A DNA stretch of 64,000 nucleotides from an uncultured Clostridia bacterium (GTDB taxonomy: Bacteria > Bacillota > Clostridia > Christensenellales > Borkfalkiaceae). Below, piece by piece: positions 25,608 through 35,943 of this stretch (positions are counted from its first letter, which is position 1; each line of letters starts with the position of its first letter). Both the position numbers and the translations under genes were made by a program. Under the pieces are notes generated by a model. It searched no databases. It was not told the origin of the DNA and saw only the letters and a list, made by a program, of their open reading frames with translations. The DNA lies in contig CAKQKI010000008.1 in assembly GCA_934248055.1 (NCBI GenBank), forward strand, positions 1,835 through 65,834, written 5' to 3'.

Positions 25608-26441
25608 ATGATTTATAACGACAGTTATATTTTAAAAACGGGTCATAGTTTTCTTGCGCCTATCTACGATCCGCCCCTTGCAACTCATAATCATACTTTT
25701 TTTGAGTTTTCTTTTATCAGACGGGGACATTGCGTAAACGTAATCAACGGCATAAGGTATCCCGTATCGCGCGGAATCTGCGCTTTACTACGCCCTTCCG
25801 ATTGCCATTTTTTTGACGACACGATGCCCGTAAATCCGAAAAAATACGAGCATATCGACGTGTACGTTTTTAAAGACGATTTTAAAAACTGTTGCGATGC
25901 AATCGATTTGAAATTGTATAACGATATAATAAATTCCGAATCTCCCGTCGTATTCAATCTTTCAAATCCCTTTCTCGAATCGCTCGATAATAAAATAGAC
26001 TACCTTATAAATAATCAGTCCGGCGAACTTGCGAAGATATTTCATAAAATCATTATCGTTTCGTTATTAGGGGCGTATCTTGAAGAAAAAGGACTTAACA
26101 ACCATAATTATCCGAAGTGGCTGAACGATTTGCTTGCAGACCTTAACACGATTGACGCGATAAGTTCGAATATTTCTGCTCTTGCCAAAAAATACGGCTA
26201 TTGCCCCGAACATTTAAGCCGCGAATTCAAAAAATTTACCGGTGAAAAACTTATAGATTACATAACCCGACAGAGAATAAAATATTCTTTGCCTTTAATA
26301 ACGGAAAACCATATGAGAATTATCGATATCGCGCAGATTCTCGGCTATCAGAAGCAAAGTTCTTTTTCGGCGAATTTCAAATCTATTATGAATTGCACGC
26401 CGAAACAGTTTCAACTGCTGCATGCCGCCGGGCAAAAATAA
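25608..26441 (+). CDS. AraC/XylS family transcriptional regulator
   Basis: 277 aa. C-terminal double HTH (ISALAKKYGYCPEHLSREFKK..., IIDIAQILGYQKQSSFSANFK). Confidence 0.8.
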   Translation: MIYNDSYILKTGHSFLAPIYDPPLATHNHTFFEFSFIRRGHCVNVINGIRYPVSRGICALLRPSDCHFFDDTMPVNPKKYEHIDVYVFKDDFKNCCDAIDLKLYNDIINSESPVVFNLSNPFLESLDNKIDYLINNQSGELAKIFHKIIIVSLLGAYLEEKGLNNHNYPKWLNDLLADLNTIDAISSNISALAKKYGYCPEHLSREFKKFTGEKLIDYITRQRIKYSLPLITENHMRIIDIAQILGYQKQSSFSANFKSIMNCTPKQFQLLHAAGQK

Positions 26442-26719
26442 TCCGAGCCGCGTTTAACTGCTGTGTTTTTTTAGTACTTCTAATCAGGAAGTTAACTACT
26501 AAAACCGATGAAAAACGAAGATAAAATCATGCGCGATAAAAATCAACGATCAGAAAATTTTTAACTTTTAATTAAATCAGCAAATAAAACGAACCTTCAA
26601 TATCGTAAAGATCGCTCGGTCTCAATGAATTTACCGATTATAAGGGTAATAACGTTTTAAGATAAAGAATGCAATTGCTTGTGTTCTGCATTTTAGATTA
26701 TACAGGGAAAAGTAATGAT

Positions 26720-29700
26720 ATGAAAAAGATGTTATGTAATTTTTGTCAGGAAACTTTAGAGTTTGAAAATCATAAATATACATGCCCGATTTGCGACAAA
26801 GAATGGAATGAAATTATCCTTAGCGATAAAAATTATTTCGATTCGGACTGCGTGTCTTATATCAATCCGATATTGACGTCAGAGTACCAAAGTTTTTATT
26901 CGTTATTGCAAAACAAACAAGTTTACGGGATTATTTTGCAAATTAAAGATATTTACGAAATCATCATCAGAATTCCCGTATTGCTGGTATGTTCTTTCAT
27001 TTTAAACGCCAAACACACGCTTAAAGGAAAGGAATTGCTTGTTTATATGATGTCTAAACCGCTGTCTTTAGGCGATTGGCGATACCTTATTTCGCTTGCT
27101 TCGGAAGTGGTAGACGAAATGGAAGAAACCGTTCCGATTGAGATCAAATCGTTGGTTAACATAGTAAAAAAATTCGTCTTTTCCGATAAAAACGGAGATA
27201 TCGTGTATTGGAGAAACAGCACCATTTCTCACGGAGCGACAAGGCAGTTAAACGATGCGGATTTATACGATGACGCCGCGACTAAATTAGAAGAAATTAC
27301 AGGTTTTTTTAAAAACAACGCTTCATTATTTCACAGTATTTCGTTCATTGACGAAAACGGCGTTGAATTGGACGAAAACAACAGCAAAATCTGCAAAAGA
27401 GGAAGGGTGTTTTTAAAAATCAACGATAAAAAATATTCTCTTTACCCTTTTTTCACCATAAAAGACGAGGGGATTTTTTTGTTCGACAGATATGTAAAAA
27501 AAATTAAAAAGACGGATATTATCGATTACGTAAAAAGCGTAAAAACCTCCGTCGAGTTTGAAGAATTAAATAATTTAAGTTTAGAAAATTCCATAAGTTT
27601 ATTTAATGCGGACAACAGTATAGACACATATACAATCGAAGAACGCGACCTTTGCGAAGAGATTGCCAACGGTAACGAATTTTTGTCACCCGATTACTTA
27701 ATCGAAGCGTTAAAAGAAGAATTAAAAAACAAAAAAAGCGTTTTTTCCATACAAATGGAAAAAGGAATGGGGAAAAGTTATTTCGTAAAAGGACTCGACG
27801 CGTTCTCATTGAATAATATTTTTATTGACGAACTTACCGTTAAAGCGTTTTATATTAATTCGACGTACAATTCCAGAGTAAACGATTTCTGTATTTGCGT
27901 CGAAGATTTAATGAGAAAAAAAACAAGCGGTTTTACGATTGCTAATTCGGTTATTCGTCTCAACATCAATTCGGCTGACCCGAGCAAGGCTTTTGCGGAT
28001 TTTTTAAACGAATACAAAAGAAAGTATTATTACGATAAAAAATTACTTTTTATTTTTGACGGAATAGACGAATTAAAAATTCAAACGGGCAAAAACATTA
28101 CCGATTTTATTCCCGATTACGATGATTTGGACGACGGAATTTATATTCTTTTGACTTTAAGAACCGATTCAAAAAACGATGAAATATCGCCGTTTGTTCG
28201 CGAATATATTTCTGATTTCAAAGGGAAAAAATATTGCTATACAAAATCAAGCGAAGAATATCTTTCGTTCGCAAAGAATTATTTTGATTTGTTTTTTGTT
28301 AAAAAAGTACTGTTGTTTTGCAAAAAAAATAAACTGAACAATAATATCAACGTGGCGAAAATGAGCGAAAAATTCTACGAAATCGAAGACAAGTCGATGT
28401 TGAATTTAAGCTTGATTCGCGAATTGACTCTTTTAAATTTAAACGACTGCATTAAAAAAGGAAACGATTATTTCAATGCCGACGAGTTGTCTTTCGGCAG
28501 CGATATGTACGTTTCTTATTTCAGCAGTATAAAAGAGTATTACGGTTCAAAATATTATGAGAAATTCGTCAACGTTTTGTGCCGTCTGGCAATTGCCGAC
28601 AGGGGGCTTTCCCTTGAAGAGTTGTCTGTTTTATCGGGAAACAACAATCTGAATTTTGCCTTTCTCGGCTTTATAAATTCCATGAAAATGTTTCTTGATA
28701 CAATCAGAGACAATAAGGGAACGTTGTTTACTATAGGCCACATAGATAGAAAGAGTATCATTTATTCGATTTTCAAACAAGAAATCGATAGTTTAAAAAA
28801 CGAGATTATTTTAAGAATAGAAAACGTTTCAAGTGACGCTTTTGCTTACGGAAACGTTGAAGACAACGTGTTTTATTGCTGTATTAACTCAATTCTCAAC
28901 GACTTAAACCCCGCAATTCCCGACGATTGCGCCGTTGCGTTCGATTTGTTTAAAAGCATGCTTAAATTGCCTTTGGATTTCGATTGGGGCGCGTTTCGTT
29001 CGACTATTATTTCCGAACTGATTGTTTTAAATAATATAACGGGGTTCGAGAAGTTTTCGTTCGACTTGAACGAAGAGCAAAAATACGATTATTTCATGAT
29101 TTTATCGAAAATCGCTTTTAATGAAATGATTTTAAAAAATACCTGTATAAGCGAGCAGTTTTTTGAAAAAGCAATTGCCTTCTATAAAGACGAAAGCGCA
29201 GACGAAAACAAGCAAAACGGTTATGCGGAAACGCTGTCTTTTTACGCTACTTTATTGTGGGATTTGGGAGAAAATGACAAGGCATATAACATTTATAAAG
29301 AAGTTGTAAAGTCCAAAAAGAATATAAATTTAACCGATAAACAATTAGTTTCTGACGTAGACCTTTTGTCGGAATACGTATGCCTGTCTAATATTGCCAA
29401 TTCGGCGCGTTTTTACGACGAGCAATTCAACAATTTAAAGTTCGTCGAACAAGGTTTGCCTTTATGTTGCGATTGCGAGAAAAAAGAGAGAACTCTCCCG
29501 TTTATGAGCGCGTGTTTTTTTAGTTATTACAGAGATATAAACGACGTAAAAAATGCGATATATTATATTAAAAACGCCATTTCGGAATATGATATATGCT
29601 GCCATAACCCCGAATCGAGAATGTATATTCCGGATTTGGTCAAGTGTATGTACAAATATATCGATTACATCAATTTAAACGATGCCGTTACGTGTGATTT

Positions 29701-29935
29701 CGACAAAGAAGAGAACTATTTTAATTCCTTAATCGATTATATTTCTCAAAATAAAGACTACGACGATCCTTTTTCATTTATGGAATACTTGTTTAGCCTT
29801 TACAGATTATACAAAACGAGAAATGATGAAAAAGCCAAGTATTATAAGGAAAAAATAATAAATTATTATTTACATTTAGATGACGCGTATAAAGAAAACG
29901 AACGTCTGGCAAAAATTATCGAAAAAGTTAATTAA
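26720..29935 (+). CDS. STAND-class P-loop NTPase (NACHT-like) with N-terminal zinc ribbon and HEPN-like motif and C-terminal TPR-like repeats
   Basis: Contents: Zn ribbon CNFC...CPIC; WRNSTISHG (Rx5H); Walker A GMGKS at 27764-27778; NACHT-style Walker B LLFIFDGIDE at 28043-28072; helical repeats in the last ~350 aa. I prefer the start at 26720 (MKKMLCNFC) over the ORF-track start at 26669. The gene is AT-rich. Confidence 0.65.
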   Translation: MKKMLCNFCQETLEFENHKYTCPICDKEWNEIILSDKNYFDSDCVSYINPILTSEYQSFYSLLQNKQVYGIILQIKDIYEIIIRIPVLLVCSFILNAKHTLKGKELLVYMMSKPLSLGDWRYLISLASEVVDEMEETVPIEIKSLVNIVKKFVFSDKNGDIVYWRNSTISHGATRQLNDADLYDDAATKLEEITGFFKNNASLFHSISFIDENGVELDENNSKICKRGRVFLKINDKKYSLYPFFTIKDEGIFLFDRYVKKIKKTDIIDYVKSVKTSVEFEELNNLSLENSISLFNADNSIDTYTIEERDLCEEIANGNEFLSPDYLIEALKEELKNKKSVFSIQMEKGMGKSYFVKGLDAFSLNNIFIDELTVKAFYINSTYNSRVNDFCICVEDLMRKKTSGFTIANSVIRLNINSADPSKAFADFLNEYKRKYYYDKKLLFIFDGIDELKIQTGKNITDFIPDYDDLDDGIYILLTLRTDSKNDEISPFVREYISDFKGKKYCYTKSSEEYLSFAKNYFDLFFVKKVLLFCKKNKLNNNINVAKMSEKFYEIEDKSMLNLSLIRELTLLNLNDCIKKGNDYFNADELSFGSDMYVSYFSSIKEYYGSKYYEKFVNVLCRLAIADRGLSLEELSVLSGNNNLNFAFLGFINSMKMFLDTIRDNKGTLFTIGHIDRKSIIYSIFKQEIDSLKNEIILRIENVSSDAFAYGNVEDNVFYCCINSILNDLNPAIPDDCAVAFDLFKSMLKLPLDFDWGAFRSTIISELIVLNNITGFEKFSFDLNEEQKYDYFMILSKIAFNEMILKNTCISEQFFEKAIAFYKDESADENKQNGYAETLSFYATLLWDLGENDKAYNIYKEVVKSKKNINLTDKQLVSDVDLLSEYVCLSNIANSARFYDEQFNNLKFVEQGLPLCCDCEKKERTLPFMSACFFSYYRDINDVKNAIYYIKNAISEYDICCHNPESRMYIPDLVKCMYKYIDYINLNDAVTCDFDKEENYFNSLIDYISQNKDYDDPFSFMEYLFSLYRLYKTRNDEKAKYYKEKIINYYLHLDDAYKENERLAKIIEKVN

Positions 29936-29949
29936 ACGGAGCGATAACT

Positions 29950-30987
29950 ATGAATAATATACAAGAATTTAAAAACGCCAAATACGGATTGATGATTCAT
30001 TTCGGCTTATATAGTTTGCTGGGAGGCGTGTATAAAGGACAACGCGGTCCTGCATACGCAGAATGGATTGAATGTAACAAGCGTATACCTAATGCCGAAA
30101 TCGACAAATTAGCGAGTGTTTTCAATCCTATTTATTTCGACGCCGACTATATTTGTCGCTTCGCAAAAGAATGCGGCATGAATTATATCGTCATCACGAC
30201 AAAACACCACGAAGGCTTTGCCTTGTTTAAATCGAATGCAGATAACTTTAATAGTTTCGACGGTACACCATGCAAAAGAGATTTAATAAAAGAATTGTCG
30301 GTTGCTTGCGAAAGATATGATTTAAAACTTGGTTTTTACTATTCTCAATGCATCGATTGGAGAGAGCCTGACGGCGGAGGATATACCGTAGACCCTAAAT
30401 ACTCCGCAGGCGCGTCATGGGATAACGATTGGGATTTTCCCGACAAAGAAAAAAAGAATTACGAGGCGTGTTTCAATAAAAAAATCTTACCTCAAGTCAA
30501 AGAAATTATGTCCGCTTACGGAAAGATATTTTTGGCCTGGTTTGATATGCCCCTTGATTCAACTTATCGACAAAGTGAAATATTATACAATACGGTAAAA
30601 GAATTGCAACCCGACTGTTTAATCAATTCCAGATTAGGAAACGGCAAATTCGATTACGTTTCTTTGGGGGATAACGAAATTCCCGATTTTATCCCTGACG
30701 CTATTTCGGCAAGCGTAGACGACAACGATATATGGGGATTTAAAAAATCTCCTTACGGACTTTACGAATCGGCATGCACTTTGAATAATTCGTGGGGATA
30801 TAGTTCTGTCGACGATGATTGGAAAACACCCGAAACCGTTTTAAATAACAGGATAAAGTTGGAAAGATTAGGCATAAATTACCTGATAAACGTAGGGCTG
30901 GATTGGTTGGGAAGAATACCCTTTAAAGCCGAAAACATATTGAGAGAGGTTCAAAAATTATATGAAGAAACGCAAACAAATAAATAA
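29950..30987 (+). CDS. GH29-family alpha-L-fucosidase-like protein (catalytic domain only)
   Basis: 345 aa. KYGLMIHFGLYS and TTKHHEGFALF match the GH29 N-terminal motifs. Confidence 0.75.
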   Translation: MNNIQEFKNAKYGLMIHFGLYSLLGGVYKGQRGPAYAEWIECNKRIPNAEIDKLASVFNPIYFDADYICRFAKECGMNYIVITTKHHEGFALFKSNADNFNSFDGTPCKRDLIKELSVACERYDLKLGFYYSQCIDWREPDGGGYTVDPKYSAGASWDNDWDFPDKEKKNYEACFNKKILPQVKEIMSAYGKIFLAWFDMPLDSTYRQSEILYNTVKELQPDCLINSRLGNGKFDYVSLGDNEIPDFIPDAISASVDDNDIWGFKKSPYGLYESACTLNNSWGYSSVDDDWKTPETVLNNRIKLERLGINYLINVGLDWLGRIPFKAENILREVQKLYEETQTNK

Positions 30988-32422
30988 AATGTTGTTTTAT
31001 TTCATTACAGACGACAACATTGAAAAACATCTTTCGACAAAAAGCGTTATAAACAGAAAAAACGAAGTCGTTTGTATTTGGAAAAACGACAAAGACGTAT
31101 CTAACGAACTTATATTTGAAGTAAAACATCTTATGGACAAAGACGAAAATATACATATCATGTCGTCTTTTGTACTCGATAAAAACTTTTACGGAGAATA
31201 CGGACTGAATTTTAATCAATCGGTTCTATTGCCGAAAAACAATTTGGAAGAAATAGGCTTTTCATTGAATAACGTAAGAATACATTGTTTCCGGTCTAAT
31301 ATTAATTTCATTGAATTAGACTACGTTGTCAATTCCGACGACCCGAAAGTTATCAATAACTTTAATTATTTTATGTCCGAAGTAAAGTCGAACGTCGTTT
31401 TAAAGTTAAGTTATAAAAAACTCAACGAAAACAATGAAGTTTACGTCGAAACAAAAGAGTTGACGGTTCTTGATTTTATATTGTCTTTAATCAAAGATTT
31501 CGGAACGCTGAACGATATGGACTTTAAAGGCGAGTTGTCATATAAATCGTTAAAACCGTTGCTGGTGTCATATTTGTTCACCGAAAACAGCACCGACGTA
31601 AATGAATTTGAAAGTAATTTAGGGCATAACTATAAAGAATCGTACAATTTAAACGAAAACCATTTGCGAAAGACTAAATATTTCAATAATTCCACGTGGT
31701 ATTATACCGTTGATTCTATTTCAAATATTACTTATTCCACCGACAATGCTTTGACAAATACCTTTTTTAGCGAAACGTTTACGGACAAGGTAAATAAACT
31801 GTATTTTCCCTTGGTCTTGTTGGCTGCGCATCAGAAATTGTATTGTTTGTACGTTTATCATAAACTTTTTGAAATAAATATCGATTTTACCACCGCGGAA
31901 GAATTAAAAAACAAATGCGACGAATTTACCGCAATAAAGGCTAATTTCGACAAAATGAGTTTGTATTACTTTTTTGACAATCCGTCTTTCATCGAACACG
32001 TAAACGTTTTCTATTCAAACGTGGTCGAGGCTTTCGGCGTAGAAACGTATAAAAAAGCGGTTTATTCAAAAACGAACACATTGATAGAGTTTTCAAATCA
32101 ATGCTCAAAATTATTGGCTAATTATAAAGAGAAAAAAGAATCTAAAAGAAAAATTATTTATGACATTTTTGCTATAATCACCGCATCTGTTTTTTCGTTT
32201 GCTTCATTGTACGATACGTTTTTAAAATTCTTAAAAAACATCAACGTTTCGTTTGGTTTTACCGACAACATTTTAATCTTTTCGGGATTTGCAGTCGTTT
32301 GCCTTATTATTCCTTTTATTTACAATCTCGCTAACAACATGAAAAAACTAAAAAAATCGAAGGCAGAGATCGCCGAAACCGAAAAAAAGATAAAAGACAT
32401 AGGTGTAAAAATAGACATGTAA
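30962..32422 (+). CDS. Hypothetical protein with two C-terminal TM helices
   Basis: 486 aa, very AT-rich, with no family I recognise. TM1 is IIYDIFAIITASVFSFASLY and TM2 is ILIFSGFAVVCLIIPFIYNL, followed by a Lys-rich coiled tail. An alternative start at 30989 would remove the 26-nt overlap with the GH29 gene. Confidence 0.55.
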   Translation: MKKRKQINKMLFYFITDDNIEKHLSTKSVINRKNEVVCIWKNDKDVSNELIFEVKHLMDKDENIHIMSSFVLDKNFYGEYGLNFNQSVLLPKNNLEEIGFSLNNVRIHCFRSNINFIELDYVVNSDDPKVINNFNYFMSEVKSNVVLKLSYKKLNENNEVYVETKELTVLDFILSLIKDFGTLNDMDFKGELSYKSLKPLLVSYLFTENSTDVNEFESNLGHNYKESYNLNENHLRKTKYFNNSTWYYTVDSISNITYSTDNALTNTFFSETFTDKVNKLYFPLVLLAAHQKLYCLYVYHKLFEINIDFTTAEELKNKCDEFTAIKANFDKMSLYYFFDNPSFIEHVNVFYSNVVEAFGVETYKKAVYSKTNTLIEFSNQCSKLLANYKEKKESKRKIIYDIFAIITASVFSFASLYDTFLKFLKNINVSFGFTDNILIFSGFAVVCLIIPFIYNLANNMKKLKKSKAEIAETEKKIKDIGVKIDM

Positions 32423-32544: not shown

Positions 32545-32582
32545 AAACAAAAAACGAACCCCATCGGAACGAAAGGGTTCGT
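32545..32582 (-). terminator. Terminator downstream of tRNA-Leu
   Basis: Stem ACGAACCC (32554-32561) / GGGTTCGT (32575-32582). On the minus strand it is followed by TTTTTGTT. Confidence 0.6.
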
Positions 32583-32594
32583 TTTATTCTTGTT

Positions 32595-32680
32595 TGGTGC
32601 CGAAGGTGGGACTTGAACCCACACATGGTCGCCCATAACGGATTTTGAGTCCGTCGCGTCTGCCATTCCACCACTCCGGC
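32595..32680 (-). tRNA. tRNA-Leu (anticodon CAA), CCA encoded
   Basis: I folded the reverse complement by hand. Acceptor GCCGGAG/CTTCGGC; anticodon arm ACGGA-CTCAAAA-TCCGT; long variable arm (ATGG-GCGA-CCAT); T arm GTGGG-TTCAAGT-CCCAC; discriminator A plus CCA. Total 86 nt. Confidence 0.92.
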
Positions 32681-32800
32681 AAAAACAGTTGATTTTTAAA
32701 GCGGATTATGCAATACTATATATAATACGTTTAAAAGCAGTAATATAATAACACAGCGACGAAAAAAACGCAAACGTTTTTAAGCGTATACAAGGAAAAT

Positions 32801-35362
32801 ATGGAAAAATTAGTTTTAATCGACGGCAACAGTCTGATAAATCGCGCGTATTACGCAACCCCGCTTTTAACCGACAAAAGCGGCCGCCCGACGAACGCGA
32901 TACTCGGCTTTACGAATATGCTTATAAAAATGCGCGCCGATCTTTCGCCCGACTATCTTCTCGTTGCGTTCGACCGCCACGAGCCTACTTTCAGGCATAA
33001 AATATTCGAATCTTACAAGGGAACGCGCAAACCCATGCCCGACGATTTGCGCCTGCAAATTCCGCTTCTTAAAGAACTTTTAAACGCTATGAATATCAGA
33101 ACTTACGAGCAGGCGGGAATAGAAGCCGACGATATTATAGGCACTATCGCAAAGCGTTACGGCGGAAAAACTATTATAATTACCGGCGATAAAGACAGTT
33201 TTCAACTCGTAGACGATAACGTTTCGGTATACTTTACCAAAAGGGGCATAAGCGACGTTGAAATATATACCGCCGAAAATTTTCAGGAAAAGACGGGTAT
33301 TTTACCTTCTCAGGTTATAGATTTAAAGGCGTGTATGGGAGATTCGTCAGACAATATTCCCGGGATAGCGGGCGTAGGCGAAAAAACCGCTTTAACGTTA
33401 ATTCAGAAATACGGCGGGCTTGACGGAGTTATATCTCACGCGGAAGAATTGAAAGGCAAACTTTCCGAAAAAGTTATAAACGGAAAAGAGTCTGCATATT
33501 TAAGCAGAACGCTCGCAACCATAAATGTTCACGCGGATATTCCCGAAAATATCGAAAAAAGCGTTTTCCCCTTTCCGTTCGGCAATGAAGTAAAAAAATT
33601 ATTCGAAAGCCTTGATTTTAAAGGGATTCTGCGAAGAACGGAATTGTTCGGGGCGGACGACGCGAATCAACTCTCTCCCGAAAAAAGCGAAATACAGGTT
33701 AAAATAATAAAAAAAGCGGAAGATTTTACGGGAATTCCGAGCGGGAACGAAATAACGCTCGCCGTTCTTAAAGATATTCACGTTTTTAACGGCGATAATA
33801 CCGAATACGTAATAAAAATTGCCGAAAACATGATGCTTGACGACGGTTTTTCTTACGAAGAAGGGCTTGAATTATTCCGCGAATTCGTTGAAAACGCCGA
33901 AAATACGGTTATTTGCTATTCGCGCAAAAAACTTGACGATATTTTTTACGACGCGGGAATAAATTTTAACTGCAAGGCGGAAGATCTCGACCTTGTAAGA
34001 TATCTTGCGGATTTTTCGGGACGGGAAGAAACGCTCGAAGAAACTCTCGAAGATTACGGCAAAAACAAAAACACGCCCGCTTTTTCGCTTTACTCGCTTT
34101 ATACCGAACTTTATAAAAAACTTAAAGAAGACGGAACCGAAAAGTTATATCGCGAAACGGAACTGCCGCTTTCACGGGTTTTAACAGCCATGGAGCGCGC
34201 GGGGTTTAAAATCGATATAAAAATGCTTGACGAGTTAAAAAAGGAATATTCCGCTAAATTAAAGGAATTATCCGATAAAATAAACGAGTATGCGGGCGAA
34301 CCCGTAAACCCGAATTCACCTAAGCAACTTGCAACGCTTCTTTACGAAAAACTCGGACTTTCCAAAGGAAAAAAGAATAAAAGCGGGAATTACACCACGA
34401 GCGCGGAAACCCTTGAAGCGCTTGCGGACAAGCACCCCGTCGTTCCGCTGATTTTAAGTTACAGAACGGCGCAGAAACTTTATTCTTCGTATATAGAAGG
34501 AATGCGACCGCTTATCGACGTAAAAACGGGACTCGTTCACACGTGTTTTAATCAGACGCTCACTCAGACCGGCAGGCTTTCGTCGAAAGAGCCTAACCTT
34601 CAGAATATTCCCGTCCGCGAAGACGAAGGCAGAGTGCTGAGAAAACTTTTTATTCCGAGAAGCGAAAACAGAACTCTTATAGACGCGGATTACTCGCAGA
34701 TAGAATTGCGGTTGCTTGCGCACATGAGCGGCTGCGAAGAACTGATCGGGGCTTACAACGAAGGAAAAGACGTGCATGCCGTTACGGCAAGTCAGGTTTT
34801 CGGAGTACCGATTACGGAAGTCACGCCGCAAATGCGCCGCAGCGCGAAAGCCGTTAATTTCGGAATTATTTACGGAATCAGCGAATACGGTCTTGCTAAA
34901 AATCTGAAAATCAGCGCGAAAGAAGCCGCAGATTATATTAAAAAATATTTCGAAACTTATCCGCACGTTAAAGAATATATGGAAAAAAACGTGGAATTTG
35001 CAAAAAAGCACGGTTACGTTACCACTCTTTTCGGAAGAAAGCGAATTATAAAAGAACTTTCTTCTTCTAATTACGCGGTAAGAACGTTCGGCGAACGGGC
35101 GGCAATGAACATGCCCCTTCAGGGAACGAGCGCGGACATTATAAAAATCGCGATGATAAACGTTTTTAACCGTCTTAAAAAAGAATGCCCCGACGCGTAT
35201 CTTATTTTACAGGTCCACGACGAACTTATAATCGACGCGCCCGACGAATGCGTAGCCGCCGCTTCTAAGATTTTAAAATACGAAATGGAAAACGCCGTTA
35301 AACTGAAAGTGCCGCTCACGGTAGAACTTTCGACCGGCAAAACCTGGTATGACGCGAAATGA
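32801..35362 (+). CDS. polA: DNA polymerase I
   Basis: 853 aa. N-terminal 5'-nuclease (LIDGNSLINRAYYA) and polymerase motifs DYSQIELR and QVHDELI. Confidence 0.97.
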   Translation: MEKLVLIDGNSLINRAYYATPLLTDKSGRPTNAILGFTNMLIKMRADLSPDYLLVAFDRHEPTFRHKIFESYKGTRKPMPDDLRLQIPLLKELLNAMNIRTYEQAGIEADDIIGTIAKRYGGKTIIITGDKDSFQLVDDNVSVYFTKRGISDVEIYTAENFQEKTGILPSQVIDLKACMGDSSDNIPGIAGVGEKTALTLIQKYGGLDGVISHAEELKGKLSEKVINGKESAYLSRTLATINVHADIPENIEKSVFPFPFGNEVKKLFESLDFKGILRRTELFGADDANQLSPEKSEIQVKIIKKAEDFTGIPSGNEITLAVLKDIHVFNGDNTEYVIKIAENMMLDDGFSYEEGLELFREFVENAENTVICYSRKKLDDIFYDAGINFNCKAEDLDLVRYLADFSGREETLEETLEDYGKNKNTPAFSLYSLYTELYKKLKEDGTEKLYRETELPLSRVLTAMERAGFKIDIKMLDELKKEYSAKLKELSDKINEYAGEPVNPNSPKQLATLLYEKLGLSKGKKNKSGNYTTSAETLEALADKHPVVPLILSYRTAQKLYSSYIEGMRPLIDVKTGLVHTCFNQTLTQTGRLSSKEPNLQNIPVREDEGRVLRKLFIPRSENRTLIDADYSQIELRLLAHMSGCEELIGAYNEGKDVHAVTASQVFGVPITEVTPQMRRSAKAVNFGIIYGISEYGLAKNLKISAKEAADYIKKYFETYPHVKEYMEKNVEFAKKHGYVTTLFGRKRIIKELSSSNYAVRTFGERAAMNMPLQGTSADIIKIAMINVFNRLKKECPDAYLILQVHDELIIDAPDECVAAASKILKYEMENAVKLKVPLTVELSTGKTWYDAK

Positions 35363-35943
35363 AAAATTATCTCGTTGCCGTAACAGGCGGAATAGGAAGC
35401 GGAAAATCAACGGCTGTAAAAATTCTTAAAGACAGCGGCTACACGGTGTTTTCAGCCGATGATATTTACAGAAAATTACTGAAAAACAAGACCTTTCAAA
35501 AAGCCGTTTACGCCGCGGCGGGAATTGAAAAGCACGGCGAAAAGTTTGAGTTTTCAAAGGTGTCGGAAGCGGTTTTCAACGACGAAAAAAAACTTGAAAA
35601 ACTAAACGCCGTCACTCACCCCGCAATAATGAACGCGATGCTTTCGGAAAGCAAAGCGGCGGGCGGACTCGTTTTCAACGAAGTTCCCCTTCTTTTCGAA
35701 GGCGGATACGAAAAATTTTATAACGAAGTGATAATAGTCGTTCGCGACGAGAATTCAAGGATAGAAAGCGTTATGAAAAGAAGCGGTCTTACCCGCGAAG
35801 ACGTTATTAAAAGAATAAAAAAACAGTTCGATTATGAAAATACCGAAAATACCGCGCATACTGTTATTAGTAACGACGGCGATTTAATCGCTTTTTCTGA
35901 AAAGGTGAAAACGGTTGCGGAAAATATCGGTAAAAAACTTTAA
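35359..35943 (+). CDS. coaE: Dephospho-CoA kinase
   Basis: 194 aa. P-loop GGIGSGKST. polA-coaE synteny with an ATGA overlap. Confidence 0.9.
   Translation: MKNYLVAVTGGIGSGKSTAVKILKDSGYTVFSADDIYRKLLKNKTFQKAVYAAAGIEKHGEKFEFSKVSEAVFNDEKKLEKLNAVTHPAIMNAMLSESKAAGGLVFNEVPLLFEGGYEKFYNEVIIVVRDENSRIESVMKRSGLTREDVIKRIKKQFDYENTENTAHTVISNDGDLIAFSEKVKTVAENIGKKL

Follow-up and report, generated by a model that had tools for sequence, protein, structure and literature searches.

Among the systems described to date, those closest to the locus considered here are built around the CorA-like proteins of CRISPR loci. The CRISPR CorA is a membrane effector that is activated via its cytosolic domain by SAM-AMP, a derivative of S-adenosylmethionine (SAM), and is always encoded beside a degrading enzyme (PMC10600005). 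The Bacteroides fragilis version is toxic on its own, and the adjacent enzyme relieves this toxicity (PMC10600005). It has been proposed that the ligands differ between CorA clades (PMC11229360), and a representative from type VI-B systems moves Zn2+, Ni2+ and Cd2+ in liposome assays and tunes Cas13b, a HEPN RNase (PMC11662929). In the literature that we searched, CorA-like effectors are described only as ancillary to type III and VI-B CRISPR systems, and a full-text search combining CorA, antiphage and STAND NTPase found no paper. Here we present a CorA-like protein from a distinct setting, encoded in a stretch of 64,000 nucleotides (hereinafter, the window) from an uncultured Clostridia bacterium of the family Borkfalkiaceae (GenBank assembly GCA_934248055.1, contig CAKQKI010000008.1). 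The gene in question, at positions 30962..32422 of the forward strand, codes for P0001, a 486-residue protein with two transmembrane (TM) helices, recognized by translation, homologs, hydropathy, an AlphaFold2 (AF2) model and profile comparison. It is the last member of a cassette that also encodes a STAND NTPase and an AlfC-type alpha-L-fucosidase of the glycoside hydrolase family 29 (GH29). With a confidence somewhat better than even, we propose that P0001 is the membrane arm, or effector, of a STAND-based conflict module of the defense type that has not yet been described.

The comparison with the CRISPR-linked proteins reveals both shared and distinguishing features. As in the III-B CorA of B. 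fragilis (PMC10600005), a large N-terminal cytosolic domain, unique in fold, is combined with a C-terminal two-TM part, members of the family match the same PADLOC hidden Markov models (HMMs), an enzyme is encoded next door, and the gene is accessory and moves laterally. Unlike it, P0001 is partnered with a STAND NTPase and shows no linkage to cas10 or CRISPR; the enzyme beside it is a GH29 protein, replaced in sister clades by an AdoMet-decarboxylase (AdoMet_dc)-like protein, as opposed to NrN, DEDD or SAM-AMP lyase; and P0001 itself lies beyond the direct reach of the HMMs. The type VI-B1 CorA (PMC11662929) furnishes a second parallel, namely a two-TM CorA-like protein of gut bacteria encoded beside a HEPN-type gene, the counterpart here being an RNx4H motif in the STAND protein. 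That CorA, unlike P0001, clusters together with canonical CorA and III-B CorA-1, and its genomic associates are Cas13b and reverse transcriptase (RT)-Cas1, whereas the neighbors of P0001 (STAND, AlfC, tRNA-Leu and polA) include no Cas13b or RT-Cas1 genes. The only CRISPR array seen in the genome lies outside the window, on contig C12 (33020-33900), and has a 36-nucleotide repeat, GTTTAAGAGTATAACAAAATAACAAAGCTCTCAAAC, with spacers of about 30 nucleotides in a type II-like arrangement. A search of the genome for Cas10 yielded no match to Cmr2 and only a 30-bit match to Csm1 (cut-off 170) on another contig. Since the genome lacks Cas10 and the one array seen in it is type II-like and on another contig, the CorA-like gene of the window is not CRISPR-associated.

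The open reading frame at 30962-32422 runs for 486 codons without an internal stop, and its first 26 nucleotides are shared with the upstream GH29 gene. Its start is supported by a GAGAGAGG box ahead of the ATG at 30962 and by homologs in which the N-terminal "QINK" extension is kept and position 10 is V, I or L and not Met. Against the 88%-identical ortholog at the locus L001, the ratio of nonsynonymous to synonymous substitution rates (dN/dS) is 0.105; this is a real gene under purifying selection. A chance reading frame in AT-rich DNA, another candidate that we considered, is ruled out by this ratio and by homologs at 34-99% identity. With a G+C content of 0.314 versus 0.434 for the window, no other 1461-bp stretch of the window is lower, and it is indeed the most AT-rich gene, as a preliminary description of the sequence had stated.

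That description had also envisaged a cytoplasmic domain of about 390 residues, two close TM helices and a Lys-rich tail, and the layout holds in every part. Hydrophobic Kyte-Doolittle windows of 19 residues are confined to residues 398-423 and 427-461. The order along the protein is approximately 397 cytosolic residues; a K/R-rich approach, ANYKEKKESKRK; TM1 (residues 398-424, IIYDIFAIITASVFSFASLYDTFLKFL; 32153..32233, forward strand), which ends in SLYDTF; a loop of 12 residues; TM2 (residues 437-457, ILIFSGFAVVCLIIPFIYNLA; 32270..32332, forward strand); and a cytosolic tail with 9 K in 29 residues (32333..32419, forward strand), which is helical in the AF2 model. The positive-inside rule predicts a topology with both termini on the cytosolic side.

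P0001 was previously taken for an orphan; it in fact belongs to a rare family lacking a Pfam model. A word-index search recovered 8 clusters of homologs with 37-99% identity, and an HMMER search run exhaustively over 1.84 billion representatives expanded these to 74 clusters at E ≤ 1e-3, mostly of full-length proteins of 460-530 residues. Repeating the word-index search with a 42-sequence profile added a single further context, and a scan of GTDB recovered as the sole relative the Hadza metagenome-assembled genome (MAG) that carries L001. The 42-sequence family alignment is marked by the motifs NYFxSExK, NYKxSYK, FxNSxW, TNxFF, YFxLFLxxxHQ(K/R) and PSxxEHxN, with N243, T265 and Y281 being invariant. 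None of the aligned members has a meaningful Pfam domain, and no PDB sequence matched the family profiles. The bridge to known proteins came from the PADLOC models for CorA-like effectors. A distant member at L018 matches PDLC01175, and among the 42 aligned members PDLC01043 is matched by 20 (best E 1.6e-18), PDLC01175 by 13 and PDLC01174 by 9. In these homologs the matches are collinear, PDLC01175 covering the N-terminal domain and PDLC01043 the central part and the stalk. One bridging member, P0018, matches P0001 in phmmer at 1.8e-44, PDLC01043 at 9.6e-14 and, collinearly, PDLC01175. Further, profile-profile alignment with hhalign of the clade of P0001 (A3) and the distant clade (A4) gave a probability of 100% and an E-value of 3e-74 over 468 columns. 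This clear link at the family level argues for P0001 being a highly divergent, non-CRISPR member of the CorA-like membrane-effector superfamily. Membership in the SLATT superfamily, which the preliminary description had entertained along with a CorA-like layout, is rejected: P0001 matches no SLATT model in Pfam or PADLOC, and the 42 members show only lone stray matches to "2TM Effector" or PycTM at E of about 5e-3.

The predicted structure agrees with the CorA-like half of that earlier suggestion. An AF2 model built from the 42 sequences has a pLDDT of 91.5 and a pTM of 0.85; an earlier model from 8 sequences (pLDDT 73.6), which left the most conserved segment, 209-270, unmodeled and found no meaningful Foldseek match in the PDB, is superseded, and our structural conclusions use the 42-sequence model. 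Both are monomer predictions. The model displays an N-terminal cytosolic alpha/beta domain (residues 1-260; 30962..31741, forward strand), delineated by AF2 secondary structure and alignment conservation. It is followed by helices at 263-303, 312-336 and 345-357, a continuous helix at 360-426 and a final one at 433-483. The helical stalk (residues 263-397; 31748..32152, forward strand) comprises these AF2 helices, and the corresponding region of the homologs matches PDLC01043; its last helix, 360-426, runs unbroken into TM1, as in CorA. Within the N-terminal domain, the polar and aromatic residues Y136, E140, K142, K225, Y228, N243, W246 and N255 are invariant across the family. In a Foldseek search of the PDB, the top 28 or so matches were all to Thermotoga maritima CorA, the best with an E-value of 5.4e-3 and the probability reaching 0.87. 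The BFVD library of viral folds gave no significant match, a phage "Mg2+ transporter" ranking second at E 0.09. Like T. maritima CorA (PDB 4i0u, 3jcf and the 8tm* entries), the modeled P0001 combines an alpha/beta N-terminal domain, a helix running from the stalk into TM1, a short loop, TM2 and a basic C-terminus, and on this model its architecture appears CorA-like. Unlike it, P0001 has neither a PF01544 match nor the GMN motif, spans 486 as against about 350 residues and bears a larger and different N-terminal domain.

Contextual evidence comes from the recurrence of the cassette. A trio coding for a STAND protein of about 1075 residues, a 345-residue AlfC and a CorA-like protein of about 480 residues is found in six further sequence clusters: at L001 from a Hadza-gut Clostridia MAG, and at L004-L007, L009, L010 and L021-23, with different flanking genes each time. 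An additional contig fragment (L011) contains only the end of an AlfC gene and a CorA-like gene. At L004-L007 the trio adjoins a YoeB/Phd toxin-antitoxin pair. The L021-23 version, whose CorA-like protein shares 34% identity with P0001, is from a common human-gut organism, and the collection lists its STAND protein, P0099, in 243 indexed blocks. Across the loci, identities to the window proteins fall through 91/70/65/57/46% for STAND, 94/80/77/73/70% for AlfC and 88/61/58/52/34% for the CorA-like protein, and this parallel fall in the three genes is as expected of co-inheritance as a cassette. Moreover, at L026/27 a 469-residue CorA-like gene lies 4 nucleotides upstream of a STAND gene whose product is 36% identical to that of the window, and there is no fucosidase; because of this arrangement, the link between the STAND and CorA-like genes can be seen to survive both a changed gene order and the loss of AlfC. 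The partnership with the STAND gene that had been suggested from the window alone is supported, the same STAND family co-occurring in two gene orders and many neighborhoods.

The STAND gene itself (26720..29935, forward strand) codes for a NACHT-like NTPase with a Zn-ribbon, a domain bearing an Rx5H motif, a P-loop and a TPR-like C-terminus. We place its start at M18, position 26720, because all orthologs begin at the corresponding MKKM; the longest reading frame opens at 26669, and the 17-codon extension 26669-26719 is probably not translated. Homologs contain recognizable PF24883 (NPHP3_N, NACHT-type) and TPR domains. Throughout 17 sequences of 23-69% identity, the Walker A residues G366, G368 and K369 and the Walker B residues D464, G465 and E468 are invariant; a P-loop core, invariant GxGK and DGxDE and, in the homologs, a repeat C-terminus place the protein in the STAND class. 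Equally invariant in these 17 divergent members are W181, R182, N183, H188, G189 and A190 of the N-terminal domain. The resulting WRNxxxxHGA signature (R182...H188; WRNSTISHG in the window, with the motif at 27212..27232, forward strand) fits the Rx4-6H signature of HEPN domains. Since no HEPN model matched the STAND protein, an RNase head is an assignment that we only infer from this motif. The gene is constrained as well, with a dN/dS of 0.089. In its P-loop STAND core, repeat C-terminus and putative N-terminal effector, the protein resembles Avs and bNACHT proteins; unlike these, it has no PADLOC match and is joined by two fixed partners, a distinct membrane protein and a glycosidase, in a layout not described for Avs or bNACHT.

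The distribution of the CorA-like gene is that of an accessory element. It occurs in 2 of the 37 species of the genus and in none of the 24 other families of the order; with this distribution P0001 is no housekeeping membrane protein. The STAND family is found in 1 of 38 congeneric species. The cassette resides in an AT-rich island spanning approximately 25.1-32.6 kb, with a G+C content of 0.34 against 0.43 for the window. Taken as a whole, the gene is patchily distributed and the cassette horizontally acquired. No integrase was seen in the island of the window. At the 5' edge is a gene for an AraC-family regulator (25608..26441, forward strand; G+C 0.381), identified by matches to HTH_18 (E 5e-16) and HTH_AraC; in L004 and L021-L024 the cassette has no such gene upstream. 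The 3' boundary is a tRNA-Leu(CAA) gene (32595..32680, reverse strand), beyond which lie polA and coaE. Between the cassette and the tRNA gene, a hairpin with a flanking A-run and U-run (32549..32588) is probably a bidirectional terminator closing both. It was spotted by eye and then confirmed by folding (minimum free energy -18.2 kcal/mol, z -3.7, with 0 of 200 shuffles as stable); a consensus scan for promoters and terminators gave counts no better than those from shuffled sequences. The tRNA-Leu(CAA)-polA-coaE block (32595-35943 of the window) is kept across the genus (L031-L033), and the DNA upstream of the tRNA is wholly different in each. PolA is 59-63% identical between these species of the same genus, and tRNA-Leu-polA-coaE is all that they have in common; the site beside the tRNA looks like a variable hotspot.

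Beyond the loci with the STAND gene, other members of the CorA-like family are embedded in a variety of contexts. At L002 (2866-11464), a defense islet comprises an AbiL/AriA-like ATPase with a Toprim protein, a 1432-residue Mokosh-like helicase and then a CorA-like gene. The helicase belongs to superfamily 1 and is Mokosh-like (MkoC/MkoA; MkoC model E 6e-60), and the CorA-like gene directly after it codes for a protein 43% identical to P0001; the locus may represent a form of Mokosh equipped with a membrane effector. In at least 4 clusters, a 265-residue protein with a tandem AdoMet_dc-like repeat is encoded directly upstream of the CorA-like gene (L013:9135-9932, L018:7153-7959, L016:135-932 and L012:3-233). 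Its second repeat has QSH at the position of the ESH self-cleavage site. This neighbor is striking because SAM-AMP, the known ligand of CRISPR CorA, is derived from SAM. In two cases the AdoMet_dc-like gene is part of a five-gene operon (upstream part at L013:3883-9132 and L018:1785-7156), which further encodes a protein of about 690 residues, a ParA/VirC1-like P-loop protein of about 300 residues with a weak match to PADLOC PDC-M28B, and a protein of 726-804 residues; the 694- and 726-residue proteins of these sister operons have no match in the PDB, Pfam or PADLOC. At L019 (228-3750), the CorA-like gene is the first of an operon that continues with genes for DUF4145 (359 residues) and DUF697 (318 residues) proteins, and a further member of the family adjoins a PD-(D/E)XK AAA-ATPase.

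Based on these observations, we advance the following possible mechanism. The STAND protein would sense an invader-derived cue via its TPR-like C-terminus and oligomerize. The CorA-like protein, itself a presumed oligomeric channel, might then open either through contact with the STAND protein or upon binding a small ligand, which would sit in the conserved Y/E/K/N/W cluster of the N-terminal domain of P0001, its putative sensor. The ensuing cation leak or depolarization could arrest the infected cell; alternatively, a flux of divalent cations might tune the putative HEPN-like RNase of the STAND protein itself. The reality and constraint of the gene, its family link to CorA-like effectors, the CorA-like layout, the co-occurrence with the STAND family and the patchy, accessory distribution come from the data; the channel activity, the trigger and the defensive function are the parts of this proposal that we infer by analogy with the characterized effectors.

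Several observations weigh against this proposal. Searched directly, P0001 is unmatched in Pfam, NCBIfam and PADLOC, the CorA models included, even at E ≤ 1; its tie to the CorA-like effectors is hence transitive, running via intermediates and profiles. To this extent the initial impression of a protein devoid of any family resemblance stands for direct scans with these models, and it fails at the level of the family, where the CorA-like link emerges. A six-frame search of the genome with PDLC01043 likewise gave 0 matches at E ≤ 10, a setting that is uninformative in that 13 of 14 control genomes do match with it. The structural matches to CorA are weak, with E-values of 5e-3 to 0.1 and TM-scores of 0.14-0.28, and none reaches E ≤ 1e-3. 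A GMN (or GxN) at the periplasmic end of TM1 is the signature of canonical CorA, Mrs2 and ZntB; the TM region of P0001 lacks a GMN, with TM1 ending in SFASLYDTFLKFLKN. None of the cassette genes matches the PADLOC defense models, and no relatives were found in the viral contigs scanned with two sub-alignments of the family. At L024/25 the STAND and AlfC genes are kept while the CorA-like gene is cut to its first 19 codons; thus, the membrane gene can be lost and the STAND-AlfC pair can persist without it. The remnant itself, at L024:11250-11330 and also in L025, reads MVVLNDNKMILHLLREVIK up to the stop codon. Finally, the fucosidase, the tightest neighbor of P0001, is not accounted for by an effector model.

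The last of these points leads to the alternative that survives best, even if we consider it unlikely: the cassette could be a module for core fucose (Fuc-alpha1,6-GlcNAc), in which the AlfC enzyme is joined by a MalT-like STAND protein, an AraC regulator and a CorA-like channel or sensor for uptake or signaling. The fucosidase (29950..30987, forward strand) consists of the catalytic domain only (PF01120, E 3e-56) and aligns without gaps to the characterized AlfC of L. casei (PDB 6o18) at E 4e-134 and 56% identity. All 13 catalytic or fucose-binding residues of AlfC are retained, including D199 and D241, which correspond to the nucleophile D200 and the acid/base candidate D242 (PMC7718225), R228 and E273 (R229 and E274 in AlfC) and the equivalents of AlfC N243 and E39. 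The enzyme is apparently catalytically intact, and its dN/dS of 0.045 is the lowest of the three cassette genes, marking the strongest purifying selection in the cassette. It is the sole GH29 protein of a genome that has fucI on another contig, and GH29 is present in 28 of the 38 species of the genus. All of this makes it look like a working metabolic enzyme, which fits sugar utilization and speaks against the effector proposal. The AraC gene directly upstream and the STAND-AlfC pair that outlives the CorA-like gene in L024/25 favor the same alternative. In contrast, the cassette has no permease, kinase or fucose-catabolic gene, fucI being remote from it; the AraC gene does not travel with the cassette; the CorA-like and STAND genes also pair without a fucosidase at L026/27; other family members adjoin defense-type helicases and ATPases; and the STAND protein has an invariant HEPN-like motif rather than a DNA-binding output. 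To our knowledge, no two-TM pore of the CorA type is a sugar transporter, which also weighs against a role in fucose uptake.

Slightly less probable is an explanation in which P0001 acts on its own as a membrane toxin or abortive-infection protein, or makes up a toxin-antidote pair together with AlfC; the STAND gene would then be a distinct defense gene that was only co-transferred. The diversity of partners across the family is compatible with such autonomy, as are the solitary loss of the CorA-like gene in L024/25 and the precedent of a B. fragilis CorA whose toxicity the adjacent enzyme relieves (PMC10600005). What argues for the STAND-based module over this explanation is that the adjacency of the STAND and CorA-like genes is kept through a change in gene order and down to 24-36% identity, and that the three genes keep parallel identity ranks from locus to locus, as co-inheritance predicts.

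That P0001 is instead the divalent-cation (Mg2+/Zn2+) transporter of the organism, replacing canonical CorA amid incidental neighbors, is highly improbable: the 95.8%-complete genome does lack any PF01544 match (one is present in 13 of 14 control genomes), the AF2 model resembles CorA and the VI-B protein moves Zn2+, Ni2+ and Cd2+ in liposomes (PMC11662929), yet the gene is restricted within the genus to 2 of 37 species and lies on an AT-rich island, the protein has neither GMN nor PF01544, and its linkage to STAND and AlfC is kept across unrelated neighborhoods. A canonical Mg2+ transporter is rejected on the absence of PF01544 and GMN and the patchy distribution, and Mg2+ transport in this organism is presumably served by a different protein.

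Returning to the STAND-based conflict module, the fucosidase does hold the position that signal-degrading enzymes have beside the CRISPR CorA. This raises a more speculative idea, to which we attach a low probability: the CorA-like family may be ligand-gated channels beyond CRISPR, with the clade-specific neighboring enzyme serving as the cognate enzyme of signal turnover or desensitization, in the manner of NrN or SAM-AMP lyase. If true, a non-CRISPR immune pathway would signal here by a fucosylated small molecule, and in the AdoMet_dc clades by a SAM-derived one, with the STAND NTPase (or the 690-800-residue proteins of the sister clades) controlling the production or release of the signal.

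More generally, if P0001 is indeed the membrane arm of a STAND-based module, an effector scaffold known from CRISPR systems would have been enlisted here by a STAND NTPase, and elsewhere in the family by a Mokosh-like helicase or by AdoMet_dc operons of sister clades. What has been seen as a CRISPR-only effector would thereby become a general, swappable membrane module. The clade-dependent neighboring enzyme would offer an experimental handle on two questions raised by the CRISPR CorA, namely why it requires a degrading enzyme and what ligands open the channels of its various clades. The version of the cassette that encodes P0099 as its STAND protein is, moreover, common in metagenomes of the human gut.

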